Source: Candidatus Bipolaricaulota bacterium
GTDB taxonomy: Bacteria; Patescibacteriota; Patescibacteriia; UBA11705; DATKZF01
NCBI GenBank assembly: GCA_035528115.1
Contig: DATKZF010000001.1
Span: 92,508 to 156,507 of the forward strand
DNA length: 64,000 nucleotides
Direction of reading: 5' to 3'
Made by a program: the position numbers and the translations under genes. Every line of letters starts with the position of its first letter. The first letter of the stretch is position 1. Under the pieces are notes generated by a model. That model saw nothing but the letters and a program-made list of their open reading frames with translations. It searched no databases and was not told the DNA's origin. Positions 1-48,066 of the stretch are shown piece by piece.

Positions 1-3000
1 AAATTGTCGGATCCTCTGTCAGCGCCAAAACGGACAAAAACGGAGTGGCCACGATCGATACGGGCAAAATTTTAAGCTTAACGGAGATCAAGGAGCAAAG
101 ATTGGAAAATAATTATTTGATGAAAATATCGGCCGATAACAAAGCTGTCATTATCCCATTGAGCGCCGATTATTATTATTTGGGAGAAAATGAGAGCGAT
201 CAATATTGGAATTATTTTTTCAGCGACAGATCGATGTACAAACCGAATGACACCCTTAATTTTTGGGGATTCGCGCAGAGTCGCAATGGCCAGGAAAATA
301 TAGATAAAGTGAAAATTTCTCTTACGGAATTCGATTACAAAAATTATTATTACGAATCAATCGACGTCAATCAGGTTGTCGCCGAGGTTTCCGGAGGCGG
401 CACTTTTTCAGGCAAGATGGATCTGAAAAGCTTGACTCCCGGATATTACAGTTTGGATTTTTATATCAATGATAATTTGGTTTCGCGAAGATCCATCTCG
501 ATCGAAGATTACATTAAGCCGGCATACAGCCTGAACATAGTGCCGGAGAAAAAAGCCATTATCGCCGGCGAGCCCATCAATATTGATGTTAACGCTTCTT
601 TTTTCGAAGGAACCCCGGTGCCTAATCTGGCGCTTAGCTATAATGCCGATAAAGAAGATAAAACAATAAAGACGGACGCGCGAGGCGACGCCAAGATAAC
701 CATCTCGACAAACGCCTCCAAGCTTAATGACGATTGCATCAAAACCGCGAGTTGCCATCTTTACGAAAGCTCATACCGGAATGTTAATATTTCTCAGCTC
801 GATTCCGAAGAAGCGGATATTTACGACACGGTGACAATCAGACTTTATAACGCCGCCATTCAAGCCGGCGCCAGATTCGAGGCCATCGGCAACAATAAGG
901 CCAAAATTGAAACTAGAATAAATAACATTGATTTTGATGAATTGAACGCGGGTGAAGCTTCCATTTACAACGCGCCCGTTTTCGAGGATGAGTCCAAGAC
1001 GGCGGTCGCCAACGCGACATTTCAGGCGGCGGTCACGGAAATCACTTATGTCAAAAACGAAACCGGGGAATATTACGATTTTATCAATAAAGTTGTCAAA
1101 AAAACTTATGATTACGACAGGCAAGAAAATGTGGTTTTGGTTTATGATGGAAAAACCGACGCCAATGGCAAACATATTTTCGAATTGAATATTGACCCCG
1201 AAAAAAGTTATCAGGTGCAAATTTTAACCAAGGATGCGGCCGGAAGACAAACAATCGCCGACGCGTACATGTCGGGCAATTATCAGCCGTCTCTTTTTTC
1301 TCAATACGAACTGAAATTTAAAAATAAAGATGATGATTATTCGGCGACCTTTGATTTGGGAGAAAAAGTTGATGTCTCTTTCAATAAAGATGGTGTGCAA
1401 CTGCCCGCCGGAGGCAAGGATTATCTTTACCTTAATCTTCAAAAAGGCTTGATGAATTACTTTGTTAGCGATGCCGCGGAATACGCTTTCGAGTTTGAAG
1501 AAAAACATATTCCCAACGTGAACGTGAAAGGAGTATTTTTCGATGGGCAGGCGTATCATGAGGCCAATTCGGATTGGTATTTGGGATTTTCTCAAAGTAT
1601 TATCGCCAGATACAACAGTCTGTCCAAAGAATTGAATATCGCGGTCAAAGCTGATAAAGATAAATACGAACCTGGCGAAAAAGTAACATTGGATGTAAAA
1701 GTGTCCGATCGAAACAATAAAGCCAAAAAAACCGACGTAAATTTCAGTCTGGTGGATGAAGCGTTTTTCAGTCTGAGCGACCAGACCGTCATGCCCCTGG
1801 ACACTTTGTACGAGCCGGTTTCCACCGGTTTGATAAGCACCTATAAATCTCACGATTATGTGAAGTTTATGGGAGGAGGAGGCGCTGAAGGCGGCGGTTG
1901 CTTTGCCGCCGGCACCAAGATAACCATGGCTGATGGCTCCAAGAAAAATATTGAAGACGTCAAAGAAGGCGATGAAATTTTAACTTTCGAAAACGAACGA
2001 GCAATAAAAACCGTTTCCGCGAAAGTGGTCGAAACATTCGAGCACACGGTTTCGGGATATTTGTTGATTAATGATTCCTTGCGGGTAACGCCCGAGCACA
2101 GAATGTTCATCAATAGCGGTTGGCAGATGATCGGGGAAGCGAAAGTCAATGATATGTTAATGGACGAATCGGGACAATTGGTCAGAATTGAGAAAATCGC
2201 TTATGAAAGGGAAATCGTCAAAGTTTACAATTTGCATATTGAGAAGTATCACACTTTTTTCGCCAATGGCATTTACGTCCATAATGAAAAAGGCGGCGCT
2301 CGAGTCAATTTTTTGGACGTGGCTTTGTTTCAAACCGTTTCCACGAATGCCAAAGGGGAGGGGCAGGTAAGCTTCACTTTGCCGGACAATTTGACCTCCT
2401 GGCGCGTGACCTGCCAGGCGATCAATCAGGATCTCTTCGCCGGTTCATCAGTCATTAATATCCCGGTCAGTTTGCCGGTTTTCGTGCAACCGAATGTTTC
2501 TTCGGAATATTTATCTAAGGACAAACCGATTATTAAAATGACCGCTTACGGAACGGAGTTGACTTCCAAAGATCCGGTGTCGTTTAATCTGAAATCCGAA
2601 ACGCTCGGTATCAATGAAAAGGGAATTGCCGGAGCGGCGTTTGTTCCGAATTATTATCAAATAGAATCAATGCCGCAAGGACAGCACGAGTTGGAATTGG
2701 GAGTAGAGAGCTCGAAAGGCAATGACGGCATGATAAAGAAAATAACGGTCTTGGCGTCGCGGCTTCGAGAATCCGCGCAAAGATTCTATACTTTGTCAGA
2801 TGATTTGAAGGTCGAAGGCGGCGCTGCGGGCCTGACCAAGCTGACTTTCAGCGATTTGAATCAAGGCAGCTTTTACTGGACATTGCAAAAGATGTCTTGG
2901 ACGGTCGGCGACAGAGTGGATCAAAAGCTTTCCAGAATTATCGGCGATGAATTGCTCCTGAAATATTTCAATGAAAATAAGTACGAGGCCGACGATCTTG

Positions 3001-4181
3001 ACGCGAGTTTGTATCAAGACGCGAAAACCGGCATCAGTTTGTTCCCGTACAGCGGCGGCGATTACGAGTTAACCGCGAAGATAGCGGCGGTGGCGGCCGA
3101 TCATTTCGATAAAAATAATTTGGCCAATTATTTTTACGCAAAATTGAATAGCGATAAATCCACGCGAGAAGAAGTGGCGCTGGCTTTGTTCGGTCTGGCC
3201 GGTTTGGACGAGCCCGTGTTATTGCCCGTTCAAGCTTTCGCGAAAATAGAAGATTTGCCGGTCATTGAAAAGTTGTATATAGGTTTGGCGCTGGAAAAGC
3301 TGGGCGACGGAGAATCGGCCAGGTCCATCTTAAAAGAGCTGTTGGACGATTATGGCGATGAAAAGGCGCCATACGCTTGGTTGAAAGCGGGTTCGGATCA
3401 AGACGATATTTTACGGGCGACATCTTTGGCGGCGGTGCTGGCCGGAGGATTGAATCATGAATCTCACGAAGCTCTTTGGAGATATGTCAGAGACAACAGA
3501 ACCGATGAAGTTTTGGTTAATCTTGAGCAGTTGATGTACACGACGTTTTCGATCGACCAACTCAGACCGGGAGAATCTTCTTTTTCCTATGAATTGAACG
3601 GAGAAGTGAAAAATATTTCGCTGGAAAAGGGATCTTGGCATCAAATCTATCTTTCTCCGGAACAATTGAGCCAAATCAAATTCAGTAACATTTCCGGCAA
3701 AATAGGCGTGGTGAGCGGTTATGAAATCGCGGCCACGGCCGTTAATTCCGAAGAAAACGGCCTTAAAATTTCAAGAGAGTATTATGTCAACGGTAAAAAG
3801 ACCAATACGTTCAAGGATACTGACTTGGTGCAGGTTAGAATTAATTATTCTTTCGACGCGGCCGCCGTGCAAGGCGAATATGAGGTGGTCGATTCTTTGC
3901 CCAGCGGTTTGAGAATCGTTACCAACCCCTTCAGCAGATATCGGGAATTTATTTCCTCGGCTTGCGGTTTGCGATATCCATACGAAATAAGCGGTCAAAG
4001 AGTCAAATTCGGCGTCTGGAAGACGACTTATTCCAATTATTGCAACAACGGGGAATTCACGTATTTCGCCAGAGTGGTCAATCCCGGAGAATATGAAGCT
4101 GAGCCGGTTTTATTGCAATCGATTAAATCAAGCGAATTGAAAAGATATTCGGAAAGCTCGAGGATAACCATTGAAAAATAA
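1..4181 (+). CDS. Large secreted/surface protein, 5'-truncated by the window edge; carries an embedded Hint/BIL domain
   Basis: The frame of the 45..4181 ORF stays open back to nt 3, so the true start lies upstream of the window. The 1378+ aa product is Asn/Asp/Tyr-rich with Ig-like repetitive segments and no obvious catalytic motif apart from the embedded Hint domain. Confidence 0.7.
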   Translation, partial: IVGSSVSAKTDKNGVATIDTGKILSLTEIKEQRLENNYLMKISADNKAVIIPLSADYYYLGENESDQYWNYFFSDRSMYKPNDTLNFWGFAQSRNGQENIDKVKISLTEFDYKNYYYESIDVNQVVAEVSGGGTFSGKMDLKSLTPGYYSLDFYINDNLVSRRSISIEDYIKPAYSLNIVPEKKAIIAGEPINIDVNASFFEGTPVPNLALSYNADKEDKTIKTDARGDAKITISTNASKLNDDCIKTASCHLYESSYRNVNISQLDSEEADIYDTVTIRLYNAAIQAGARFEAIGNNKAKIETRINNIDFDELNAGEASIYNAPVFEDESKTAVANATFQAAVTEITYVKNETGEYYDFINKVVKKTYDYDRQENVVLVYDGKTDANGKHIFELNIDPEKSYQVQILTKDAAGRQTIADAYMSGNYQPSLFSQYELKFKNKDDDYSATFDLGEKVDVSFNKDGVQLPAGGKDYLYLNLQKGLMNYFVSDAAEYAFEFEEKHIPNVNVKGVFFDGQAYHEANSDWYLGFSQSIIARYNSLSKELNIAVKADKDKYEPGEKVTLDVKVSDRNNKAKKTDVNFSLVDEAFFSLSDQTVMPLDTLYEPVSTGLISTYKSHDYVKFMGGGGAEGGGCFAAGTKITMADGSKKNIEDVKEGDEILTFENERAIKTVSAKVVETFEHTVSGYLLINDSLRVTPEHRMFINSGWQMIGEAKVNDMLMDESGQLVRIEKIAYEREIVKVYNLHIEKYHTFFANGIYVHNEKGGARVNFLDVALFQTVSTNAKGEGQVSFTLPDNLTSWRVTCQAINQDLFAGSSVINIPVSLPVFVQPNVSSEYLSKDKPIIKMTAYGTELTSKDPVSFNLKSETLGINEKGIAGAAFVPNYYQIESMPQGQHELELGVESSKGNDGMIKKITVLASRLRESAQRFYTLSDDLKVEGGAAGLTKLTFSDLNQGSFYWTLQKMSWTVGDRVDQKLSRIIGDELLLKYFNENKYEADDLDASLYQDAKTGISLFPYSGGDYELTAKIAAVAADHFDKNNLANYFYAKLNSDKSTREEVALALFGLAGLDEPVLLPVQAFAKIEDLPVIEKLYIGLALEKLGDGESARSILKELLDDYGDEKAPYAWLKAGSDQDDILRATSLAAVLAGGLNHESHEALWRYVRDNRTDEVLVNLEQLMYTTFSIDQLRPGESSFSYELNGEVKNISLEKGSWHQIYLSPEQLSQIKFSNISGKIGVVSGYEIAATAVNSEENGLKISREYYVNGKKTNTFKDTDLVQVRINYSFDAAAVQGEYEVVDSLPSGLRIVTNPFSRYREFISSACGLRYPYEISGQRVKFGVWKTTYSNYCNNGEFTYFARVVNPGEYEAEPVLLQSIKSSELKRYSESSRITIEK
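1899..2285 (+). other. Hint / bacterial intein-like (BIL, type A) domain inside the surface protein
   Basis: 129 aa that begin with Cys (CFAAGTKI), carry a TPEH block B, and end in HTFFANGIYVHN followed by Glu. A Gly-rich linker (GGGGAEGGG) sits immediately N-terminal. Confidence 0.6.
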
Positions 4182-5109
4182 CATGACAATCAGAAAAATA
4201 TTTTTAATTTTTCTCATACCGGCGGCGGTTGCTGCCGGTATGTTTTTTGTTTTTTTAAGCGGGGCTGAAATAAAAAACCATGTTACTGCCGATGAGACTG
4301 AACAACCCGTTCAAGAAATTTTGAGCGGTCAGATAATCAAAGCGGAGTTAAACCCGGATTATTTGTATCCGGCCTTGTTGTTCGCTGAAAGCGTGGAAAT
4401 AAAACAATACGGACTTATCAAAGGGGCAATTGTCACGCATCATGATTTGGCAATAAGGATGACCGCTGAAAATTTGTATAGAATTTCAAGAAATCAAAAA
4501 GTCGACAGATTGATTTTAATTTCGCCGAATCATTCTGACATCGGTTTGTCCCAGGCCATTGGCAGTCTGGCCGAGTATGACACTATATTCGGAAGATTGA
4601 GTCAGGATGAATCGATATTGGAGGATTTAAGGTCGGCCGGCTTGCTGTCTTATGATTATGAAAACATTAAAAATGAACATGGCATAAATTACATCGTGCC
4701 TTTGATAAAATATTATTTTCCGGAAGCCAAAGTCGCCGCGTTAAGTTTGTCTTCGAAACATGATTTAAAGCAGGATCTGAAATTAAGCAATGCGTTGTCG
4801 AAATATTTGGACGAAGCAAACACCGTCTTGATAGCGTCAATAGATTTTTCCCATTACCTTTCCACAAGCAGCGCCAATCAAAATGATTCGAAAACATTGG
4901 AAGCGATCAAGGCGCTTGATTTTGATTTTTTATCCACGTTCAATAATGATTTTTTTGATTCTCCGGCCGCGCTTTCGACCTTGATGAGCAGTCTCGATTT
5001 GGCTAAGGCGACGAATGACATAATTTTAGGTCATGCCAACTCCTCGGATTTTGTAGGCCATGAATTAAACAGCTCCACCGGTTACTTTTCGATTTTATTC
5101 TCAAAATAA
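4171..5109 (+). CDS. Membrane-anchored hypothetical protein
   Basis: ORF with an N-terminal TM helix. It overlaps the upstream gene by 11 nt; an alternative ATG lies at 4183. The His/Asp motifs (VTHHDLA, SPNHSD, IDFSHY) weakly resemble the Memo/LigB superfamily. Confidence 0.5.
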   Translation: MKNNMTIRKIFLIFLIPAAVAAGMFFVFLSGAEIKNHVTADETEQPVQEILSGQIIKAELNPDYLYPALLFAESVEIKQYGLIKGAIVTHHDLAIRMTAENLYRISRNQKVDRLILISPNHSDIGLSQAIGSLAEYDTIFGRLSQDESILEDLRSAGLLSYDYENIKNEHGINYIVPLIKYYFPEAKVAALSLSSKHDLKQDLKLSNALSKYLDEANTVLIASIDFSHYLSTSSANQNDSKTLEAIKALDFDFLSTFNNDFFDSPAALSTLMSSLDLAKATNDIILGHANSSDFVGHELNSSTGYFSILFSK

Positions 5110-11230: not shown

Positions 11231-12895
11231 ATGCCTACATTAAATTGGATTGGAAAAGACGCAGTAATAAACCACGACAAAGAGGTTCCTTTTCGATTAC
11301 TCAAAAAAGTTAAGTCCGCTTCCGTAGGCAATTCTCAAAATCTCATTTTGCATGGCGACAATCTACATGCCTTGAAGGCTTTAATGCCATATTACACAGG
11401 TAAAATTGAGTGTATATATATTGATCCACCGTACAACACTGGGTCTGAAAAGTGGGTTTATAATGATAAAGTAAATTCACCCAAAATTAGAAGGTGGTTA
11501 AAAAAGATAGTAGATAGAGATGATCTTTGCAAACACGACAAATGGCTTTGCATGTTGTATCCAAGGTTGAAGCTTCTAAAAGATTTACTAAGTCAAGACG
11601 GTATTATTTTTATTAGCATTGACGATAATGAGTTCGCTCAACTTAAATTACTTTGTGATGAAATTTTTGGAGAATCAAATTTTATTTCGATGTTATCAAT
11701 TGAAAACAATCCTAAAGGTAGAAAAAATTCGGCTTTTATTTCTGTCAGTAATGAATATTGTTTAATATATGCCAAGGATAAAAATATTAGCTATTTTGTA
11801 GAAAATATTCCTAAAGGAGCAAAAGATTTAGCGCTTGATGAAAATGGAGTTTATGTACACAACAGTGGGAAAAGAGTGCTTGTAGGAGAAAACAAATTTA
11901 ATCCCGTTGTTGAAAATTTTGAATCGAGTAAACACTATAGCGTCTATTACAACAAATCCAAAAATGAAATAATCACCGTGAAAGAGAGATCTATTCATGA
12001 TAAAAATACAGATTTACTAAATAAAGGTTACAAAAGATATTATTCATATTTTGAAGATAAATTTGTTTTAAATACCTATACAGCGTCAAAAATTAAGCAA
12101 CTTTTTGAAAATGATGCTCTGGATTTTAAAAACGGAAAAATATATGAAAAGAACTTTAGTACAAAAATTAGGATTAAAAGCCTAGTTACCAATAGTAAAT
12201 ATGTAGCAGTTATAGACAACGAAAAAAAGGAATACCAAATAGATGTTAAAACTACTTCGGCAGGTACTGAATTAAAAAATCTTTTTGGCGCTAAAAAAAT
12301 CCCCTTCGATAACCCAAAAAATATAGGCCTGATTAAACTATTAGTTACTTTGTTTGAAAGAAAGGACATAACAATCCTTGATTCTTTTGCTGGCTCCGGC
12401 ACAACAGGTCACGCCGTTTTGGACTTAAACAAAGAAGATGAAGGAAATCGCAAATTCATCCTCGTTGAAATGGAGGACAATGTTGCCAAAGATATTACGG
12501 CGGAACGAGTAAAACGAGCGATCAAAAAATACGATTATAAAGACGGCTTCGAATATTGCGAACTCAGCAAACCACTTTTTGATGAAGAAGGCCAAATTGA
12601 GGACACTTGCGACTTTGACCAATTCGCAACCTACATTTACTTTACTGAAACGCAAACCAACATAGACCCTGCCAATGTATCGGGAAATTTTATCGGCGAA
12701 TACGCAGAAACCGAGTATTATTTGATATACAAAGAGAAGGGCGAAAATGTATTGAGTAAATCTTTTCTGAAAAAATTACGAAAAACCGACGGTACAAAAA
12801 TAATTTACGCCGACAAATGCTTGCTTGATGAGGCAACACTTGAGAGCCACAACATCATCTTCAAACAAATTCCTTACGAAGTTAAAGTTTACTAA
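11231..12895 (+). CDS. mod: Type III restriction-modification methyltransferase (Mod, N6-adenine, beta-class)
   Basis: DPPYNTG (motif IV) lies upstream of FAGSGTTGHAV (motif I). A large target-recognition region sits between them. Confidence 0.9.
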   Translation: MPTLNWIGKDAVINHDKEVPFRLLKKVKSASVGNSQNLILHGDNLHALKALMPYYTGKIECIYIDPPYNTGSEKWVYNDKVNSPKIRRWLKKIVDRDDLCKHDKWLCMLYPRLKLLKDLLSQDGIIFISIDDNEFAQLKLLCDEIFGESNFISMLSIENNPKGRKNSAFISVSNEYCLIYAKDKNISYFVENIPKGAKDLALDENGVYVHNSGKRVLVGENKFNPVVENFESSKHYSVYYNKSKNEIITVKERSIHDKNTDLLNKGYKRYYSYFEDKFVLNTYTASKIKQLFENDALDFKNGKIYEKNFSTKIRIKSLVTNSKYVAVIDNEKKEYQIDVKTTSAGTELKNLFGAKKIPFDNPKNIGLIKLLVTLFERKDITILDSFAGSGTTGHAVLDLNKEDEGNRKFILVEMEDNVAKDITAERVKRAIKKYDYKDGFEYCELSKPLFDEEGQIEDTCDFDQFATYIYFTETQTNIDPANVSGNFIGEYAETEYYLIYKEKGENVLSKSFLKKLRKTDGTKIIYADKCLLDEATLESHNIIFKQIPYEVKVY

Positions 12896-12897
12896 TT

Positions 12898-15168
12898 ATG
12901 GAACTCAAAAAATATCAACAATCAGCGCTAGACAAGCTCAAAGCCTACCTCAAAGGCATAGAGGCCGTCGGGCCAAAATATGCTTTCATGGGTGAAACCG
13001 ACCGACCGTATCACGGCGACTTTTTCGGTGATGTGCCTTTCGTTTGTGTAAAAATCCCGACTGGCGGAGGAAAAACGCTTGTCGGCTGTCATGCTATCAA
13101 CGAAATCATGCGCTCTTTCCTCAAGCACAAAATGGATAGAGGAATTGTGATGTGGTTTGTGCCGTCCGAGGCTATCAAATCCCAAACACTCAAAAAATTT
13201 AAAGACCGCAACGACTGGCACAGGCAGGTTTTGGACGAGGCATTTCAAAACAGCGTGCGTATTTTTTCAAACGAGGAAGCATTGCGAATCAGAAAAGAGG
13301 ATGTTCAGGACAATCTTTGCATTATCATTTCCAGTTTGGAGGCTTTCCGAAAAGAAAAAACGCTCCAAAAGAAATACAAGGTTTATCAAGAAAATGGCGC
13401 ACTATTGAGCCATTTTGAAAATCTTGATGACCGAGACGACCTAGAAAAAGACGAGGAAGGCACAATTATTAATTCCCTCGCAAATGTCGTCCGCATGAGC
13501 AACCCGCTTGTGGTGATTGATGAAGGTCACAAAACAAAGACCGAGCTTTCAATGGATTTTCTCAATAGTCTGAATCCAAGTTTTATAATTGAATACACTG
13601 CAACACCACGCTCCGGCAGTAATATTTTAGTGGATATTTCCCCCGCTGAACTCAAAGACGAGCAGATGGTGAAAATTCCACTTGTACTTGAAAGCTCCGC
13701 CCAATGGCAAAACGCCGTTGCCCGCGGTCTTGAGAAGCGAGCCGAAATTGAAAAAGAAGGTAAGAAAAATACAGGCGAATATATCCGTCCAATTGCCCTA
13801 ATCCAAGCCCAGCCAAAAAGCAAAACGCAAAACAACGTAACTGTTGATCAAATCAAGGAATATTTACTTTCCGCCAAAATTTCCGAAGAAGAAATTGCGA
13901 TCAAAACATCCGACCGAAACGATTTAGAGGGCGTTGATTTATTTAGCAAGAAATGTAAAATCCGCTACATAATAACCGTTAGTGCGCTCGCCGAAGGATG
14001 GGACTGTTCTTTTGCCTATGTTCTCATTTCCGTTGCCAATGTCGGCGCAAAAATAGCCGTTGAACAGATCATCGGACGCATTATCCGTATGCCGTATGCC
14101 AAACGAAAGAAAAACGAGGCATTAAACCGCTCTTACATTTTCGCCTCCGCCAAAAACTTCAATGAGGCAGCCAGCAACATCATTTCAGGACTAGAAAGAA
14201 ACGGCTACAGCAAACTGGACTTGATCGGCGCTTCATCAAACGGCGATACCGCAAAAGACCCGAAAGAAGTAAACCGAGCCGTGAAAAAGAATTTTGCCGT
14301 TCCGATGATGAGCTTGGAGGATGAAAAACTGACCTTTGAAGAACTGATCGGCGAAGATTTTGAGCTGGCCAAACAAAACGCTGAGTTTGATTTTGAAATT
14401 CATTATGATAATGACGGCAGAGCGATTATCGATATTCAAGCCGACAAATGGATTAAGGGCGCTCAACAATTCTTAAAGCTCACCTATAAAGATAAAAACT
14501 TCTCAAAAAAGGAACTAGTGCAATGGTTAGACAAAAAGCTACGCTACACCCTCCTGGCTCAACCTGATAAAGTAAATTTTATTGATAACGCTTTGGAATA
14601 TCAACTAAAGAAAAAATCATTGATTGAATTGTCAGTTAATCGCTATGTTTTACTTAATAAGCTCGGCGAGGTAATAGATGGCATTTTGGAAGCACACAGT
14701 AAAACTCAGTTTGATAAAGCATTGTCTGCCAAAAAAATTACTGTTAAACCGTTTGATAAATATCCCGAGACAATTATTTTGGATCAGGAAATGCCTCAAG
14801 AATTCAACAAATCATACTATGAAAAAGTTGGTAAATTGAATAAAGAAGAATTGAATTTGATTGACCGGCTGGATTTAGAGACTTTACCGAACATTGATTT
14901 TTGGATACGCAATAGAGAAAAGACTGATCCGTTCTATATTATTGGTTGGAAGAAAAATAAATTTTATCCCGATTTTGTCGTCTATACAAAAAAAGGCAAT
15001 ATTATTGCGTTAGAGTGGAAAGGCGAAGATCGGGTTAGCAACAAGGATACAGAATACAAAGTTGATATTAGTAACAAATGGGCAGCACTCGCTAAGGGCA
15101 AACTGCATTTCTTCTTGGTTCATATTGGGAATATTGAAGATGTGTTGAACAGCCTAAGAGGACTTTAA
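12898..15168 (+). CDS. res: Type III restriction endonuclease Res subunit (SF2 helicase plus C-terminal PD-(D/E)xK)
   Basis: KIPTGGGKT Walker A and VIDEGHK (DEGH) helicase motifs. The C-terminal YPDFVV...IIALEWK is PD-ExK-like. The gene starts 3 nt after mod. Confidence 0.9.
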   Translation: MELKKYQQSALDKLKAYLKGIEAVGPKYAFMGETDRPYHGDFFGDVPFVCVKIPTGGGKTLVGCHAINEIMRSFLKHKMDRGIVMWFVPSEAIKSQTLKKFKDRNDWHRQVLDEAFQNSVRIFSNEEALRIRKEDVQDNLCIIISSLEAFRKEKTLQKKYKVYQENGALLSHFENLDDRDDLEKDEEGTIINSLANVVRMSNPLVVIDEGHKTKTELSMDFLNSLNPSFIIEYTATPRSGSNILVDISPAELKDEQMVKIPLVLESSAQWQNAVARGLEKRAEIEKEGKKNTGEYIRPIALIQAQPKSKTQNNVTVDQIKEYLLSAKISEEEIAIKTSDRNDLEGVDLFSKKCKIRYIITVSALAEGWDCSFAYVLISVANVGAKIAVEQIIGRIIRMPYAKRKKNEALNRSYIFASAKNFNEAASNIISGLERNGYSKLDLIGASSNGDTAKDPKEVNRAVKKNFAVPMMSLEDEKLTFEELIGEDFELAKQNAEFDFEIHYDNDGRAIIDIQADKWIKGAQQFLKLTYKDKNFSKKELVQWLDKKLRYTLLAQPDKVNFIDNALEYQLKKKSLIELSVNRYVLLNKLGEVIDGILEAHSKTQFDKALSAKKITVKPFDKYPETIILDQEMPQEFNKSYYEKVGKLNKEELNLIDRLDLETLPNIDFWIRNREKTDPFYIIGWKKNKFYPDFVVYTKKGNIIALEWKGEDRVSNKDTEYKVDISNKWAALAKGKLHFFLVHIGNIEDVLNSLRGL

Positions 15169-20772: not shown

Positions 20773-20807
20773 TTAAAAAATCCGGTCAGCGTGGCTGAAA
20801 CCGGATT
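20773..20807. terminator. Bidirectional intrinsic terminator
   Basis: AATCCGGT-cagcgtggctgaa-ACCGGATT with an A-run on the + side and a T-run on the - side. Confidence 0.6.
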
Positions 20808-20825
20808 CGTGGCGGCTATCGAGCC

Positions 20826-21029
20826 TCAGTGGAAATTGGTTTCCCTGATGATTTCTTGCCACTGCTCGAGAGTGGCAAAGGCTCGAGCGGTACGGTCTCT
20901 CCTTCCTCCCGGTCCATCGATGAAGTATCCGACGGACACGCGCAACTTGCTTACGGGAACCTTGTCTCCGCGCAAGCGTCCCAACACCACCTGTTTGTGC
21001 TGTTCGAAGGGATCATTCGGATTGGCCAT
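20826..21029 (-). CDS. GC-rich 67-aa hypothetical protein (MANPNDPFEQHKQ...)
   Basis: Preceded on the minus strand by AGGAGG and a TTGACA-N17-TAATAT promoter (21080..21108). Composition is strongly GC-rich relative to its neighbours. Confidence 0.4.
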   Translation of the reverse strand: MANPNDPFEQHKQVVLGRLRGDKVPVSKLRVSVGYFIDGPGGRRDRTARAFATLEQWQEIIRETNFH

Positions 21030-21079
21030 CCCCGCTTCCTCCTGTTGTCTCACACCAATAAAGGCAATTAGACAAAAAA

Positions 21080-21108
21080 ATATTAACATTAGAAAATCAG
21101 TTTGTCAA
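21080..21108 (-). promoter_or_regulatory. Consensus sigma70 promoter on the minus strand
   Basis: Reverse complement reads TTGACA aactgattttctaatgt TAATAT. Confidence 0.45.
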
Positions 21109-21123
21109 ACATAGTTTTGCTTT

Positions 21124-28802: not shown

Positions 28803-28831
28803 TTGACAATTTCATTCAAAATGCTATATTT
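28803..28831 (+). promoter_or_regulatory. Sigma70-like promoter TTGACA-N16/17-TATATT
   Basis: First signal in the GC-rich islet. A strong SD (AAGGAGG) lies 7 nt before the ATG. Confidence 0.5.
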
Positions 28832-28861
28832 AATCTCCGATCGCAAAAAAGGAGGTGTCAC

Positions 28862-29086
28862 ATGTGGGACATTGATCCGTCGGGAACCGCGCTCAACAGA
28901 GAAGGCATGCTGGTGGCCATTGCGCTGGCCATCTTCGTTGTCGTCATCTACCTCGTCGTGAGAGGAGTCCTGATTCGACGAGAACTGCGGTACCTGGAGG
29001 AGCTCAGAAGAAACAGCGACCCACCCAGTACTGATGAACCGACTCCAATCACGGAATTGGGGGGAGACGGGGAGAAAAATGCTTGA
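28862..29086 (+). CDS. 74-aa single-TM peptide (P1)
   Basis: GC-rich ORF with a hydrophobic core (VAIALAIFVVVIYLVV) and an acidic/Pro C-tail. Strong SD. Confidence 0.4.
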   Translation: MWDIDPSGTALNREGMLVAIALAIFVVVIYLVVRGVLIRRELRYLEELRRNSDPPSTDEPTPITELGGDGEKNA

Positions 29087-29225
29087 TATCCTTTGGTTTC
29101 TCAATGACAAGCAGGCCGCGCTCCTCGTGGGCTTCGGCGGCTTGATCATCGCGTACTGCTGCATCTACTTTCTGTTTGCGACTGGAGCGAAAAAAAGCAC
29201 CTCGCAAGGTTGTCCGAGAAAGTGA
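29079..29225 (+). CDS. 48-aa single-TM peptide (P2)
   Basis: MLDILWFLNDKQAALLVGFGGLIIAYCCIYFLF... Its ATG overlaps the P1 stop, and a GGGGAG SD precedes it. Confidence 0.35.
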   Translation: MLDILWFLNDKQAALLVGFGGLIIAYCCIYFLFATGAKKSTSQGCPRK

Positions 29226-29268: not shown

Positions 29269-29297
29269 TTGACAGCGAGCTAAGGCTTGTGTATATT
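29269..29297 (+). promoter_or_regulatory. Consensus sigma70 promoter TTGACA-N17-TATATT
   Basis: ttgacagcgagctaaggcttgtgtatatt, followed by a GAGGAG SD 8 nt before the ATG. Confidence 0.55.
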
Positions 29298-29337
29298 TAG
29301 GGGAGGAGGAACCCCTTCGCGGTGAGGAGCTAGTGCC

Positions 29338-29460
29338 ATGAAAGCTATGCCCGAAAACAGTCCTAAGGCGTACCGGTACTTCCCAGTGTTCCTGATCACT
29401 TTGTTGATCATCTTGGTGATCATCGAACTCCTCACTAAAACTTTATCCACGTGGCGCTGA
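29338..29460 (+). CDS. 40-aa single-TM peptide (P3)
   Basis: MKAMPENSPKAYRYFPVFLITLLIILVIIELLTKTLSTWR. It has its own promoter and SD. Confidence 0.4.
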   Translation: MKAMPENSPKAYRYFPVFLITLLIILVIIELLTKTLSTWR

Positions 29461-29526
29461 TCACGCCCCAAAGAGTCCGCCTGCCATAAAGGCGCGACAA
29501 ACGTGAAGTGAATCTACTTCGCGTTT

Positions 29527-41413: not shown

Positions 41414-42733
41414 CTACTTGCCGCCGTTCACGAGCTTCAGGCGCACGCGGACGGAGCCGGAAGCGACCTCGGAAGCCGCGCGCTGGAGCTTTCGCTCGTT
41501 CGCGCGCTGGAAGCGATTCCACAGCCAGCTCAGCGTGGTGCTGAGAGGCTGAGCCTCCGCCTCAACCTCGATCCTGCTTCCATCGCGGAAGCGAGAATCC
41601 TTGAGGCCGGACTTTCTGGCCAGCGCCACGGCCATGGAGGCCTCGCTCGAGTGGAGGAGAACGACCCGATCCTTGTCCTTGACCTTGAAGGTCATGACGA
41701 GAATCGGGCAGACGTCCATGCCCGCAATGGCGTCCGGGTGAGGGCCGAAACCGGTCGGGAACAAGCCGCTTTCGACGCAGAAGGCAACGATCTCCTTCCA
41801 GTCGAACACCGGCCATTCCACCCGATCGCTCGGGTGTGCGAACCTCTCGGTCTCCGAGTTTTCGAAGACCTCCTTGAGCCGCCGCATGAGCTCGAACGGC
41901 TCGAAGTTCAGCGGGTCGCTCGACTCGAGGCGAGCGACCACCTTCGCCGTCTTCTCCTGACGCTTCTTGTCGCGGCCGGCCATGTGCTTGGCCAGCCGGA
42001 ACAGATCGGCCGCTCCGTCCTCGAGGCGGTCGAAGACCAGATCCTTTCGGACCTGGCAGATCGCCACCGCGTTCAAGCGGCCGAGGATGGCGAATCCGGG
42101 CCGTCCGGTCGCCCGCGACACGAGAGCGAAGTCGCGCTCGCTCTTGTCGAGCGCGAGCGCTTTGGCGCGCTCGGCCAACCTTTCGGGGTTGAGCTTGCCC
42201 TTGCCGACGATGTCGTCGCCGAGAGCCTCGGTCATGGCTTCGGCCGAGAGGAACTTCCCCTCGCCGGAAATAGCCGCCTTGACCTGCTCCTGCCGAGCGG
42301 CCCAGGCCAGAGGGTTGATGAGCGGTACGATCTGCCGCTGATCGATCTTGGCCTGACGGCTAATGCCCAGCCGTCGCGCCTCTTCCTTGTCGCGCGCGGC
42401 CAGCACCGCGGCCGCGCACTTGCGGTGGTAGATGTCGCCCTCGCCCTTGACAACGAAGGCTTCTGACACGGAGATGACACCTGTCATTTCCGCCTTCCGG
42501 CACACTCTGCAGTGCACCTTCAGCTTGTCTAGGGGGAGCGAGACCTTGCGGTCATCAACTCCCGACTTTATTAGGTGGGTGATCTGGTCCGGGCCGGAAA
42601 TGGTCGTCTTGCCTTCCTCGCCGATGAAGGTCACCGGCAGGATCTCGTTGTTCCCGTTCTTGACCGCCACGGTCGTGCCGTGGAATGCGATCACCTGGGC
42701 CACAGTCTTCAATTCCTTAGTCGCCATGATCAT
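41414..42733 (-). CDS. GC-rich 439-aa hypothetical protein (foreign-looking)
   Basis: Marked GC enrichment across 41340-42830 between AT-rich flanks. Composition is protein-like (K/E/A/R-rich), and AAGGAGC precedes an ATGATCATG start. The antisense ORF 41375..42466 looks like a GC-shadow ORF. Confidence 0.55.
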   Translation of the reverse strand: MIMATKELKTVAQVIAFHGTTVAVKNGNNEILPVTFIGEEGKTTISGPDQITHLIKSGVDDRKVSLPLDKLKVHCRVCRKAEMTGVISVSEAFVVKGEGDIYHRKCAAAVLAARDKEEARRLGISRQAKIDQRQIVPLINPLAWAARQEQVKAAISGEGKFLSAEAMTEALGDDIVGKGKLNPERLAERAKALALDKSERDFALVSRATGRPGFAILGRLNAVAICQVRKDLVFDRLEDGAADLFRLAKHMAGRDKKRQEKTAKVVARLESSDPLNFEPFELMRRLKEVFENSETERFAHPSDRVEWPVFDWKEIVAFCVESGLFPTGFGPHPDAIAGMDVCPILVMTFKVKDKDRVVLLHSSEASMAVALARKSGLKDSRFRDGSRIEVEAEAQPLSTTLSWLWNRFQRANERKLQRAASEVASGSVRVRLKLVNGGK

Positions 42734-44623: not shown

Positions 44624-45898
44624 ATGGAAACAAAAACAAAAGGGTTGATTAAAATTTGCGCGATCGCGGCGATAATCGGTTTATTCGCCAATTTTGGTTT
44701 TGCCAGAGCGGATATAGACAGCGAAATCAATGACATTAATTCCCAAATAAAAGACAAACAAAAAACCCTGGAATCATTGAAAAAACAAGCTGATTCTTAT
44801 CTTGATAATATTAATGCAAAACAAAACGAAACGGTCAGTTTGCAAAATCAATTATCAATACTTGAAAATAAGATCGCCAAGGCGGAAATAGATATTCAAA
44901 CCACGGAAGCCACCATTGAAAAAACCCAGCTTGAAATAAAAGACGTGGCGATTCAAATTTCAAACAGGGAAGCGGATATTCTAAAAAAAGACGACGAACT
45001 CCAAGAATTGGTCAGATTATTGTATAAATCGGATCAACAGGGGACACTGCAAATATTATTGGCCAATGACACCTTGTCCGACTTTTTCGATCAAGTTAAA
45101 CACACCAAATCATTGCAAGGAAACCTGCAGAACTCATTGATTTCCGTCAAATCATACAAAGCTCAATTGGAAAGCAAAAAAGATACTTTGAATAAAAAAA
45201 ATGATGAGTTGGACAAGTTAAGGAAACAAGCTGAGCAGCAAAAAATAGCTTTGCAAGAAGAATTGGATTCCAAAGGATATTTATTGAAAGAAACGAAAAA
45301 TTCCGAAGAAAAGTTTTACAATTTATACTGGCAAACCAAACAGGAACAGCAAAATTCCAGCGCGGAAATTTATTCATTGGAAAAAGAAGCGAGATTAAAA
45401 CTCGAAGAGTTGGAAAACAAAAGAAAAGAAGCCTCCCCATCAAAAACGGAGTCCGGATTTAAGCCTTTGAGCGATTCGACCATAATGTGGCCGATCAAAG
45501 ATATTTCCAGAGGCATTTCTGCCACTTTTCACGACCCGACTTATCCGTTCAGACATTTGTTCGAGCATCCCGGCATCGATGTCAGGGCTTATCAAAGCAC
45601 GGCCATATACGCGGCATCCGATGGTTATGTGATATCAGCCAAGGATAACGGCTATGGCTACAATTATATTTCAATCATGCATGCCAACGGCATTTCCACG
45701 GTTTACGGCCATGTCAGTAAAATTCTGGTCAAACCGGATCAATATGTCATCAAGGGGCAACAAATAGGCCAAACCGGCGGCATGCCCGGCACGCTTGGAG
45801 CGGGCAATCTGTCCACCGGGCCTCATCTTCACTTTGAAGTCAGATTAAACGGTATTCCGGTCAATCCGCTGGATTATCTGCCGGATATGGGATTTTAA
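44624..45898 (+). CDS. M23/LytM-family peptidoglycan metallo-endopeptidase with an N-terminal coiled coil (EnvC-like)
   Basis: Signal peptide, a long coiled coil, then a C-terminal HxxxD...HLHFE M23 domain. Confidence 0.8.
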   Translation: METKTKGLIKICAIAAIIGLFANFGFARADIDSEINDINSQIKDKQKTLESLKKQADSYLDNINAKQNETVSLQNQLSILENKIAKAEIDIQTTEATIEKTQLEIKDVAIQISNREADILKKDDELQELVRLLYKSDQQGTLQILLANDTLSDFFDQVKHTKSLQGNLQNSLISVKSYKAQLESKKDTLNKKNDELDKLRKQAEQQKIALQEELDSKGYLLKETKNSEEKFYNLYWQTKQEQQNSSAEIYSLEKEARLKLEELENKRKEASPSKTESGFKPLSDSTIMWPIKDISRGISATFHDPTYPFRHLFEHPGIDVRAYQSTAIYAASDGYVISAKDNGYGYNYISIMHANGISTVYGHVSKILVKPDQYVIKGQQIGQTGGMPGTLGAGNLSTGPHLHFEVRLNGIPVNPLDYLPDMGF

Positions 45899-45920
45899 TA
45901 AATAGCAAAATAAATAAAAA

Positions 45921-45947
45921 ATCGCCTCAAAAAGGCGTTTTTTCTTT
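45921..45947 (+). terminator. Intrinsic terminator
   Basis: CGCCT-caaaa-AGGCG followed by TTTTTT. Confidence 0.6.
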
Positions 45948-45955
45948 TAAAATGA

Positions 45956-46229
45956 TTCAGCCGTCCACTTGTTAGCAGACGGCTGAAAATGTCGTAGAGT
46001 CCGACCAAGATCTGCCATCACTCGATGGCTTCACTCAGTCGGCGCCGCCGGGTCACTCGGTCAGGTCGCGTCGCGCTGGCCGTCACGATGCCGTCGTCGA
46101 GGCACAGACATTTGGAACCGTATGCCGAAACAGCGACTCACTGGGAACCCTCCATGGCTTTCCTCCTTGCCATGTGAGTTTTAGACACCCTCGCACACCT
46201 TTGTGCAAGAGATCCAAAGAAAAGAACTG
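45956..46229 (-). ncRNA. Candidate structured RNA or leader transcript (unclassified)
   Basis: Bounded by the minus-strand promoter at 46236-46263 and the hairpin TCAGCCGTC...GACGGCTGA (45957-45986). GC-rich with several 6-bp hairpins. No ORF of 60 aa or more. Confidence 0.3.
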
Positions 46230-46235
46230 ACAACA

Positions 46236-46263
46236 TTATAGCAAATATTTATATATTGTCAAT
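46236..46263 (-). promoter_or_regulatory. Consensus sigma70 promoter (TTGACA-N16-TATAAT), near-palindromic and possibly bidirectional
   Basis: Reverse complement reads ttgacaatatataaatatttgctataat. The plus strand reads CTGACA-N17-TATATA. Confidence 0.5.
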
Positions 46264-46338
46264 AGCCAGAAGGCATTATTGATGTTTTTTATCTTATTTT
46301 AGACAAAAAATCAAAATTCATCCATTACATTTAAAATT

Positions 46339-46556
46339 AAAAAACCGTCCGCTCAAGAGCAACGGACGGTCAGGTTGTGGGCGCCACTTGGTGGACGCCG
46401 GTTGCCGGTTTCGGAGCTCTCCCGAGAGACGCTCCAGCCCAACGGACAGGACCAGAACCAGCACATCGAGCTATCTTTCGCTCTTCCAACCTAACGCTAG
46501 TCCATTTTTTTGGCCAACAGCTGAAGCGTTAGGGCGCTTGCGAATTAGCTCGATGG
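46339..46556 (-). ncRNA. Candidate structured RNA of about 215 nt (unclassified)
   Basis: Runs from the minus-strand promoter TTGACG-N17-TATTAT (46561-46590) to the terminator CCGTCCG...CGGACGG plus U-run (46339-46370). Long-range pairing CATCGAGCTA...TAGCTCGATG, and GC-rich hairpins. Confidence 0.35.
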
Positions 46557-46560
46557 CATA

Positions 46561-46590
46561 ATAATATCAAACATCGTAAAACCCGTCAAG
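46561..46590 (-). promoter_or_regulatory. Sigma70-like promoter TTGACG-N17-TATTAT
   Basis: Reverse complement reads ttgacgggttttacgatgtttgatattat. Confidence 0.5.
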
Positions 46591-47229
46591 TATATCAATA
46601 TTTGCATTTCGTGGGTCATAAAACTCAAAAACCATGGGGGATAGCAAAAATTTGTCTATAATTTGAAATGAGCGATATTATTTACAACAAGTTAAGAAGA
46701 AGGAAAACAAGCAGCCGTTGATTTATTATTTATTTAATTGTCTTTGCTTCAAGCTCAGATTTTGAGATTCAGGCGGGGAGAGTAGCGCTCATCGCATTGG
46801 ATTGGAGGATATGAAGCGTCGCACAATATACCTTATGCGACACATTAACCAACTTTCCTTGGGCTATGTGTCGCATAAGGTTCGCATATTTTGCAACGCT
46901 TGCGGTGCAATCTCGCAAAATATGCGTAATAGGCCTTAAAACGCAATTTTGAGCCTCGCTTTTGGTCTATTTTGTGTTAATATTATTGACTTAAACGAAT
47001 CTTCAACAGAAAAAAATTTCAGCTCCTTTAAGACATTTAAAATTTAAAAATCCGGATTTGCCATCCGAACCCTTTTTCCATGATTTATTTTTTATTTTCT
47101 ATTACTTAATACTCGTTACCTATTGCTGGTTTATAAAAACCCATTTCCCCATTATCTTCATCGCTCTCTCCCACTATGCGTCGCAAAACATGATACCAAA
47201 ATTTTAGCAACCGGATTAACTTGAAATAT

Positions 47230-48066
47230 CTATTGATAAAACACTTTCTCCCCGAAACGCAGGTCAATATAGTTCAATCTGTCCAGCTTGTCCGAAAGCC
47301 CCTCTTCCCTAATCAATAGATTCAACCTCTTCAGTTGATCGGTGATGCTCAGCTTTTGGTTGAAGTATATCTCAAACCCTTTTTCGGTCATCACTCGAAG
47401 ATCCGAATTTGAATCGGAAATTTGCTTAAATGTCTTTACCTTGTTGCCTTGGCCTTCCAACTGGTCATTCAATTCAATGATATAGTTTATTTCCTCCGAC
47501 GACAGTACATTGTCTCCCACGCCGACGCTCTTATCCCCTTCAAATCTGATTTGAATAAACTCGGAGCTTCGATCATTGCATTTCTCAACGATATCTCCCT
47601 TAATATCTATATTAAAACAATTTTCCTGCGTGATGTAAGCCAAGGTGGAAACTTTTTCTTGTAAAATTATTGACACATAGGCGGGATGAAAGCTTTTTTG
47701 AATTTCTATCCATTCCAATAAATAAGTTTGAGCTATTTCACTCTGCAGATCATTGATATTGAACAAAAAAACATTATTATGTTTGAATAAAACCCCTCTT
47801 TGCATCTCCTGCTTGACTATGTTATCGAAATCTTCATTTTTAATGTATTTCAACCCAAAAATCTCCACTTGCTCTATTCTAAAATAAGAAGACAGATAAA
47901 AAAAATAAACAAACGCCATGCCTAAAATAATAACCGCGATCAAGGTTATTATCAAATTTTTCTTTTTCAAAACTTTCCCGTCTCTGACCTTTTTCGGATT
48001 TTGATAATTGGACACGACAAAATCCTTTGACAAGTGACTTTTGTTTTGGTCCATTCTCATAATCAT
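47230..48066 (-). CDS. FtsQ/DivIB-like cell-division protein (single TM plus POTRA-like)
   Basis: N-terminal cytoplasmic tail, one TM helix (LIITLIAVIILGMAFVYFFY), and a periplasmic beta-rich domain. Overlaps the alr stop. Confidence 0.5.
   Translation of the reverse strand: MIMRMDQNKSHLSKDFVVSNYQNPKKVRDGKVLKKKNLIITLIAVIILGMAFVYFFYLSSYFRIEQVEIFGLKYIKNEDFDNIVKQEMQRGVLFKHNNVFLFNINDLQSEIAQTYLLEWIEIQKSFHPAYVSIILQEKVSTLAYITQENCFNIDIKGDIVEKCNDRSSEFIQIRFEGDKSVGVGDNVLSSEEINYIIELNDQLEGQGNKVKTFKQISDSNSDLRVMTEKGFEIYFNQKLSITDQLKRLNLLIREEGLSDKLDRLNYIDLRFGEKVFYQ

Follow-up and report, generated by a model that had tools for sequence, protein, structure and literature searches.

Described dif sites consist of two 11-bp arms with dyad symmetry around a central region of 6–8 bp; archaeal dif likewise follows an 11-6-11 layout, the plasmid sites cer and psi add about 180 bp of accessory sequence to their core, and the attP of phage CTXphi is a folded hairpin of two inverted dif-like sites (PMC5357621). 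On bacterial chromosomes dif lies 0.6–100 kb from the switch in GC skew, and the site of Magnetospirillum reads CGTCGCCATAA TATACA TTATGCGACAA (PMC2731167). Here we describe an intergenic stretch of 1331 nt (positions 45899–47229) within a window of 64,000 nt from contig DATKZF010000001.1 (assembly GCA_035528115.1; coordinates are those of the window). The stretch holds a conserved element with a 28-bp dif-like core, here called B, and beside it two predicted minus-strand transcription units, units 1 and 2. The explanation that we favour, by a modest balance of the evidence, is that the element is a dif-like Xer locus adjoining two orphan non-coding units.

No open reading frame (ORF) of 60 amino acids or more occurs in the stretch. 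No gap of this kind elsewhere in the window is longer, the runner-up measuring 425 nt, and this agrees with an original prediction, made from the DNA letters alone, that it was the only long one. GltX homologs place the genome in the Patescibacteria (candidate phyla radiation, CPR), near Falkowbacteria, and a second assembly (L003) contains an identical copy of the region. We view the whole as a convergent, terminus-proximal intergenic region of a Patescibacteria chromosome, composed of two unrelated parts, a conserved one (46775–47188) and a variable one (45946–46589).

The conserved element and its 28-bp core

Eight related genomes were recovered through homologs of GltX and FtsQ; the loci referred to below are L004, L006 (identical to L010), L008, L012, L026, L028 and L029. 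Scanning genome contigs with GltX gave relatives of only 41–42% identity, which were of no use, and a metagenome scan with an FtsQ alignment gave two loci, one of them L006 and the other without the region. The features of the conserved part are as follows.

46775–46787, plus strand: block A, GGGGAGAGTAGCG, conserved as AGAGTAGYGC; partial inverted repeat of 47162–47174
46811–46939, plus strand: 42-aa ORF MKRRTIY.., not a conserved gene (ORF list, relatives)
46816–46843, no strand: core B, dif-like 28-bp site GCGTCGCACAA-TATACC-TTATGCGACAC (11-6-11)
46830–46881, minus strand: hairpin 1, formed between an inverted copy, C-left, and the right arm of B extended by ACC (3 nt of the centre); stem of 16–23 bp
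46868–46899, no strand: site C, GTGTCGCATAA - 10 nt - TTTTGCAACGC, two half-sites at non-canonical spacing
46883–46926, minus strand: hairpin H, CGCATATTTTGC/GCAAAATATGCG, whose stem sequence differs between genomes and stays complementary
46932–46955, no strand: block D, GGCCTTAAAACGCAATTTTGAGCC (alignment of relatives)
47053–47067, minus strand: terminator of the ftsQ-alr-serS operon, which scores as a plus-strand terminator too (terminator scan)
47162–47188, no strand: inverted repeat IR-R, CGCTCTCTCCCAC, followed by half-site E, GCGTCGCAAAA (47178–47188)

In the alignment of relatives, conservation at the nucleotide level spans 46775–47188. The segment AATATACCTT, spanning the centre of B, is invariant in all eight genomes, and the arms of B vary between them (GTGTCGCCCAA, GTGTCGCCAAA, TTATACGACAC, TTTTACGACAC). 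B is conserved and keeps its position over a GltX identity that falls to 59%, and the order GltX, M23 peptidase, variable slot, element, FtsQ and Alr is preserved among the relatives. Within block D, GCAATTTT and a G two bases downstream are likewise invariant (8/8 genomes). The spacer between C-left and C-right is 10–11 nt across genomes, and the distance from B to E amounts to 362–388 bp in five genomes and 340–383 bp in three more.

The full site occurs once in the window and once in each related locus, and perfect 11/11 half-sites are confined, within the 64 kb, to 46816–47188. The four GTCGCA/TGCGAC half-sites pointed out in the original prediction are present at 46818, 46836 (minus strand), 46870 and 47180, and represent 4 of the 15 copies of GTCGCA in the window. 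The nested palindromes CGCATATTTTGC/GCAAAATATGCG were also found as described (46883–46894 and 46915–46926, 100% complementary).

B has the arm and centre layout of dif, with 11 + 6 + 11 bp, and its inner bases resemble those of published sites, for example that of Magnetospirillum. A dif-like Xer recombination locus is in our view the best reading of the palindromes, with sequence architecture as its sole basis. A host tyrosine recombinase of the Xer type would bind the two 11-bp arms of B, and strand exchange across the invariant TATACC centre would resolve chromosome dimers. The three further half-sites (C-left, C-right and E) and the two co-varying hairpins would then form an accessory architecture.

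The palindromes had previously been described as operator-like, and the 28-bp palindrome with its half-sites might accordingly be operators for a transcription factor. The half-sites are indeed palindromic and repeated, and the promoter of unit 1 lies 230 bp from the site. In the relatives, however, two genes converge on the element with their 3' ends and no promoter is close to it, so that there would be none to control. Conservation is higher in the 6-bp centre than in the arms, which is the opposite of usual operators, and the 11-6-11 family is found in the non-coding DNA of at least 120 unrelated phages. Operators are therefore highly improbable, and the 11-6-11 core with its half-sites has the architecture of dif/Xer.

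The hairpins could conceivably belong to a minus-strand non-coding RNA of three hairpins instead of a DNA recombination site. Their stems were compared genome by genome, since MAFFT shifts the register between genomes. Hairpin 1 (16–23 bp) and hairpin H (12–22 bp) both keep their pairing while their sequence changes; the loop-proximal part of hairpin 1, for example, differs between genomes yet remains complementary (CAT/ATG, CAATA/TATTG, GCTATA/TATAGC). Moreover, the plus-strand mismatches in L008, L029 and L026 are C.A, and these turn into G.U when the minus strand is read. On the other hand, both hairpins are missing from L004 and L012, which retain B, D and E, and the covariation term from RNAalifold over five genomes is approximately zero. 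The core of B recurs alone in phages without the hairpins, perfect helices of 16–22 bp are unusual for structured RNAs, and no clear promoter or terminator bounding the element was seen when the sequence was read by eye, with no systematic scan. Taken together, these points make an RNA very doubtful.

The element does not appear to encode protein. The 42-aa ORF MKRRTIY.. listed in the original prediction exists, but it is not conserved: in L004 a TAG stands just upstream and there is no start, and in L008 there is an early stop. Since no ORF is conserved and the RNAalifold covariation term is near zero, we take the element to be DNA, and not a gene or a long RNA. A candidate conserved small ORF after ftsQ (..ILRRIVGE..) was rejected; its frame has no start in L008, and in L012 it has an early stop and is preceded by a terminator.

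For the dif-like locus the genomic position is also of interest. Leading strands are usually biased towards G over C. Cumulative GC skew of the window climbs to approximately 29.4 kb and then declines, peaking locally once more at about 46 kb, and gene orientation switches at both positions. The skew peak and the strand flips together suggest that forks converge within the window, and the replication terminus thus appears to lie in these 64 kb. The two switches may possibly be explained by a local inversion of 29.5–39.3 kb or 39.4–45.9 kb. Upstream of the stretch the gene order (plus strand) is radical-SAM, LigT, WecG/NUDIX, a GC-rich 439-aa gene of unknown family, GltX and the M23 peptidase; downstream, on the minus strand, are FtsQ-like, Alr and SerS genes. 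Elsewhere in the window, a type III restriction-modification pair occupies 11231–15168 (plus strand), comprising an N6_N4 methylase of 554 aa and a ResIII helicase-nuclease of 756 aa.

Several observations weigh against a dif-like locus. Compared letter by letter, B agrees with published dif sites at 17–19/28 positions, which is not discriminating, as a value of 18/28 is attained by the best-scoring random 28-mer of the window. B is 17 kb from the skew maximum in the view afforded by the window, a distance that falls inside the published range given above, and whether the site is unique and where the terminus lies are judged from 64 kb of the genome only. A motif search of the window and Pfam scans of 10 ORFs turned up neither an Xer nor an FtsK gene. 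We know of no chromosomal dif site that needs accessory half-sites or hairpins. Finally, the change from C.A to G.U makes the minus strand the better-pairing one in the hairpins, which hints at an RNA or a single-stranded form.

An inverted repeat brackets the conserved element, at 46775–46787 and 47162–47174 in the window and at 13774–13791 and 14181–14198 in L006. It changes in concert within a genome, reading GGGCGAGAAGAG in L006 and GGGAGAG in both copies of the window. Only L006 has a strong form of the repeat (18 nt, 89%); in the other genomes it is weak, and an inverton bounded by IR-L and IR-R was considered doubtful for this reason. In L012 block D is found twice, as an inverted repeat of 18 nt (13959–13976 and 14027–14044).

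Copies of the site in phages

The exact variant with the TATACC centre occurs in 11 phage contigs of IMG/VR with unrelated flanks, in non-coding DNA near terminase and portal genes, and no integrase was found among the neighbours examined. The same 28-mer is absent from GenBank phages and from the plasmids of PLSDB, which fits uncultured hosts. A scan of IMG/VR that kept the arms constant and let the centre vary returned at least 120 phage contigs (L014–L147), each with a single site that, where examined, is usually non-coding and near terminase genes.

Among the matches listed, the positions left free are strongly non-random and average AyGTCGCAcAA TATATA TTgTGCGACaT; the palindrome also runs into the flanks in 27 of 121 sites, against approximately 8 expected. 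With its inner part ..CAcAA TATATA TTgTG.., this consensus resembles canonical dif, the centre of which is of the TATATA type (PMC2731167). Of the 128 phage loci among these matches, no more than 4 have a tyrosine-recombinase motif, as detected by regular expression, in the vicinity of the site. The same expression recovers E. coli XerD.

The variants found in phages match those of the hosts: L020 carries the type of the window, L023 that of L006, and L017, L021 and L022 that of L012. Each host and its phage share the inner arm bases by which the types are distinguished. The phages would use a Xer-type recombinase of the host, either for integration, in the manner of integrative mobile elements exploiting Xer (IMEX), or for multimer resolution.

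Two minus-strand units in a variable slot

The part of the stretch to the left of the element contains the following features.

45899–46770, no strand: variable slot, the content of which differs between relatives
45923–45937, no strand: bidirectional terminator hairpin after the M23 peptidase gene (stop at 45898; terminator scan)
45946–46228, minus strand: unit 2, predicted transcript of ~280 nt (start placed ~7 nt past the -10 box, 3' end from the terminator)
46262 to 46235, minus strand: unit 2 promoter, TTGACA-16-TG-TATAAT, 12/12, TG-extended (consensus scan)
45987–45956, minus strand: unit 2 intrinsic terminator, a 14-bp stem and then the U-rich tail UCAUUUUAAA
46138–46174, minus strand: unit 2 hairpin CAUGGC-AAGGAGGAAA-GCCAUG with mini-ORF (sequence, ORF list, folding)
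46335–46554, minus strand: unit 1, predicted transcript of ~215 nt (promoter and terminator signals)
46589 to 46561, minus strand: unit 1 promoter, TTGACG-17-TG-TATTAT, 10/12, TG-extended (consensus scan)
46371–46343, minus strand: unit 1 intrinsic terminator, an 11-bp stem and U-run

That there are two minus-strand units, each running from a promoter to a terminator, was already part of the original prediction, and the consensus scan recovered both with coordinates differing by at most 1 nt. Promoter matches of at least 11/12 number eight in the 64 kb, and all eight lie directly upstream of a gene, of tRNA-Trp or of unit 2 in the correct orientation; the consensus is thus predictive in this genome. 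Each unit would be driven by a promoter of the sigma-70 type and ended by its intrinsic terminator, to give GC-rich, highly folded RNAs of ~215 and ~280 nt. Both units have their own promoter and terminator on the same strand in intergenic DNA, as expected of independent small RNA (sRNA) genes.

The GC content of the region reaches 0.63–0.67, versus ~0.41 for the window. In unit 1, the helix CATCGAGCTA/TAGCTCGATG (10 bp; 46464–46473 and 46546–46555) is 100% complementary. This helix had been thought to close the RNA; the pairing is present, but it closes only a 5' domain formed by the first 93 nt (46464–46555) and not the whole of unit 1. The hairpin GGAGCGTCTC..GAGAGCTCC is seen on folding, as is CATGGC-AAGGAGGAAA-GCCATG (46153–46174), both of which had been noted before. 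The loop of the latter, in unit 2, bears a perfect Shine-Dalgarno (SD) sequence (AAGGAGG), and 7 nt downstream an AUG (46155–46153) starts a 5-codon ORF, MEGSQ*, with its stop at 46138. With a consensus ribosome-binding site and AUG in a hairpin, unit 2 would be expected to bind 30S subunits, either to translate the mini-ORF or to stabilise the RNA.

No match at the gathering threshold was obtained for the units among 4227 Rfam families, the only such match of the window being tRNA-Trp, and at E ≤ 10 there was only hairpin and terminator noise (10–22 bits versus thresholds of 40–200). ARAGORN, which searches for tRNA and tmRNA, returned nothing in the region. The Rfam search proposed in the original prediction thus assigned no family to either unit, and these covariance models and ARAGORN bear out its failure to recognise tmRNA, RNase P, SRP or 6S RNA.

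A small protein gene is not apparent either. The SD and ATG of unit 2 lead into 5 codons only. The 37-aa ORF of unit 1 (MCWFWSC..) has no SD, and its GC content at the three codon positions (0.45/0.71/0.74) is wrong for a gene, the coding GC-rich islands of the window (20.8, 28.8–29.5 and 41.4–42.8 kb) having ~0.61/0.43/0.63 or stronger. The original prediction had suggested checking this ORF for conservation, and none was found: an exhaustive HMMER search of 1.84 billion proteins gave one marginal match (E 8.6e-4), within a protein of 3672 aa. Neither unit contains a transmembrane-like ORF, as might be found in a type I toxin-antitoxin pair, and no tandem repeats were found in them. Antisense pairing between units 1 and 2 was rejected, as the two form a duplex of the same energy as shuffled controls do (z = 0.07). 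Use of TGA as a sense codon in unit 2 was likewise discarded; the rest of the genome is normal in table 11 and the product is not protein-like. An AT-rich inverted repeat flanking the units (45908 and 46720) was judged to be due to chance because its right arm falls in the conserved flank.

The slot in which the units sit turns over its content between lineages. In L004, L008, L028 and L012 it contains a plus-strand gene for a SprT-like HExxH protein of 127–136 aa, and in L006 and L029 this gene together with a different GC-rich promoter-terminator unit. In L026 unrelated small toxin-antitoxin-like genes are found, including one for a SocA_Panacea (antitoxin-type) protein; there the DNA beside the dif-like element (2666–4827) carries small genes in place of M23 and GltX, which identifies the flank as a site of gene turnover. 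The HExxH protein (127–128 aa, LAHEIAHY) follows M23 at 12969–13355 in L004, 12977–13360 in L006, 5236–5622 in L008, 4063–4449 in L028 and 3550–3933 in L029, and has no Pfam match. No trace of its gene was detected in the window by tblastx, and the units are thus not its decayed remnant. More generally, the tblastx comparison put forward in the original prediction gave no support for a pseudogene remnant.

The GC-rich unit of the relatives (L006 13385–13640, minus strand; L029 3260–3530, plus strand) has no Rfam match, L006 having been searched at the gathering threshold and at E ≤ 10. Over the 3' two-thirds of this unit, L006 and L029 agree at 93% of positions without a single indel, versus 66–69% at third codon positions of M23 and FtsQ and 71–75% in spacers, and the unit may be under constraint, modestly above the local background. 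Its SD and AUG are kept and its mini-ORF is not, this being MWWRDT* in L006 and M* (AUG-UAG) in L029. Homology of unit 2 to the L006 unit was considered and rejected; the local alignment is weak (z 2.45), MAFFT gives 43–47% with inconsistent registers, and a covariance model yields no match.

Several results speak against functional RNAs in the units. By blastn and tblastx, no homologs of either were found in the eight related loci or in the rest of the window, where only AT-rich noise was returned, and none in the 128 phage loci, in GenBank phages or in plasmids. Conservation or covariation in relatives, which the original prediction had named as its test, was seen neither by blastn nor by tblastx nor with a covariance model. 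The 93% identity of the L006/L029 unit is only modestly above background because third positions of the SprT-like gene are 85% identical. On folding, the minus strand of unit 1 gives -97.3 kcal/mol and the plus strand -89.3 kcal/mol (z = -5.3), and that of unit 2 -112.2 versus -94.3 kcal/mol (z = -3.3); GC-rich protein-coding DNA of the same window, used as control, folds with z of -2.7, -3.9 and -3.5. GC-richness and folding scores are thus not diagnostic, since the GC-rich coding cassettes behave alike, and the earlier argument that GC-rich structured sequence is a sign of functional RNA does not hold in this window.

These cassettes suggest another origin, in which the units would be what is left, dead or without an ORF, of GC-rich small-protein cassettes like those found elsewhere in the genome, and thus expressed junction DNA with no RNA function. 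Those at 20.8, 28.8, 29.3 and 42.9 kb (the last of 439 aa) share a layout of consensus promoter, short 5' untranslated region, strong SD, ATG, GC-rich body and terminator, and unit 2 has exactly this layout, though its ORF ends after 5 codons. Beyond that point its frame is interrupted by only two TGA and by no TAA or TAG, and read from the ATG its codon-position GC (0.60/0.54/0.66) goes in the direction of a gene, more weakly. Two stops in 65 codons are, however, what is calculated for random sequence of 60% GC. The units give no tblastx match to relatives, including the SprT-like gene, and unit 1 has no SD, the wrong codon-position GC and, in its 37-aa ORF, the one marginal protein match only. 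In addition, the unit of the L006 type retains SD and AUG while its mini-ORF shifts from 6 codons to AUG-UAG. We regard such remnants as an unlikely explanation, though one to be taken seriously.

The cassettes themselves lie at 28803–29225 (plus strand; proteins of 74 and 48 aa), 29269–29520 (plus strand; 40 aa) and 20785–21110 (minus strand; 68 aa), each with a consensus promoter, strong SD and terminator, and three of the proteins look membrane-spanning. The two at 28803–29225 and 29269–29520 coincide exactly with the main GC-skew maximum. The 439-aa gene (41414–42733, minus strand) has 64% GC and a third-position GC of 0.85 in a genome of ~41% GC, and belongs to no Pfam family. Its syntenic counterparts in L004, L006 and L008 are GC-rich too (53–62%) and very divergent in sequence and length (467–565 aa).

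It is also conceivable that the units are the cargo or the scar of a mobile element which entered beside the dif-like site, through Xer recombination as an IMEX or as a phage. The slot next to the site differs among close relatives and holds toxin-antitoxin-like genes in L026, a matching site is carried by many phages, and the GC content of the units is anomalous. An IMEX should have left a boundary, but neither a full site nor a half-site of at least 9/11 is present in 45850–46800. The units are dissimilar to all 128 phage loci, to GenBank phages and to plasmids, and the other GC-rich cassettes are far from the site. An origin of this kind is quite unlikely.

Both units are very probably independent minus-strand transcription units with no coding capacity, as judged from their signals. 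With modest confidence we propose further that they are orphan, lineage-specific and accessory non-coding RNAs, not housekeeping ones, and that unit 2 may bind ribosomes. The original prediction was therefore sound as to two non-coding units with independent signals, and it is not supported in treating GC-richness as a mark of RNA or in the operator reading.

Comparison with described systems

Like the housekeeping RNAs (6S, SRP, RNase P and tmRNA), the units are GC-rich, structured and stand-alone; unlike them, they match no covariance model and are absent at this locus in the nearest relatives, and unit 1 is not one long hairpin as 6S RNA is. They share with orphan bacterial sRNA genes a free-standing, non-coding organization with near-consensus promoters and strong terminators. 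In comparison to typical base-pairing sRNAs, they are larger (215–280 nt), more structured and of ~60% GC. Unit 2 differs further in its full SD and AUG, and no homologs, targets or chaperone context are known for either unit. At present the units are ordinary orphan candidates, and they warn that GC-rich islands are a poor signal of structured RNA here.

For the conserved element, a dif assignment would have wider consequences. It would provide the first candidate dif locus for these Patescibacteria, a full-text literature search having given no earlier description of dif for the group. The variants of arm and centre would allow uncultured phages to be assigned to CPR hosts by a sequence rule, exploitation of Xer would extend from filamentous phages and islands to tailed phages, and an undescribed form of Xer control would be suggested by the additional half-sites and the co-varying hairpins. 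A far more elaborate scheme can be drawn, which we consider speculative and very unlikely. The dif core would be built into a folded hairpin locus, with an inverted copy of the right arm, a second co-varying hairpin and a half-site ~340–390 bp away, that acts as a single-strand or cruciform substrate like the attP of CTXphi. It would serve as the entry point for a large class of tailed phages, so far undescribed, with a dif mimic instead of an integrase, and the GC-rich RNAs with SD and mini-ORF (units 1 and 2, and the L006/L029 unit) would be accessory RNAs delivered to the slot.

B most closely resembles E. coli dif and B. subtilis Bsdif, the sites of XerCD-FtsK, in having 28 bp with 11-bp arms of partial dyad symmetry and a 6-bp centre. 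Like these it is intergenic, single-copy in the available DNA and near a GC-skew switch, and it has the inner arm bases CAyAA/TTATG and the T-A-T-A-type centre of published sites. It differs from chromosomal dif in that its arms are nearly the same, forming an almost perfect palindrome, and in the three additional half-sites and two long co-varying hairpins at its flanks. High symmetry of the arms is shared with archaeal dif/XerA, difH/XerH and difSL/XerS and is compatible with one recombinase species on both arms of B. The arm sequences of B are, however, unrelated to those of archaeal dif, difH and difSL, and whereas difSL and difH adjoin their own recombinase gene, B has none adjacent to it.

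The phage copies recall IMEX (CTXphi, VGJphi, TLCphi and the gonococcal genetic island, GGI) and plasmid sites (cer, psi and pdif), in that mobile genomes carry a mimic of dif, mostly with no recombinase gene nearby (the four exceptions in 128 loci being those among the matches listed above). In contrast to IMEX, no integrated copy between two sites was seen here. The carriers are tailed phages with terminase and portal genes and not filamentous phages or plasmids, and the accessory-like sequences, which in cer and psi belong to the mobile element, are here chromosomal.

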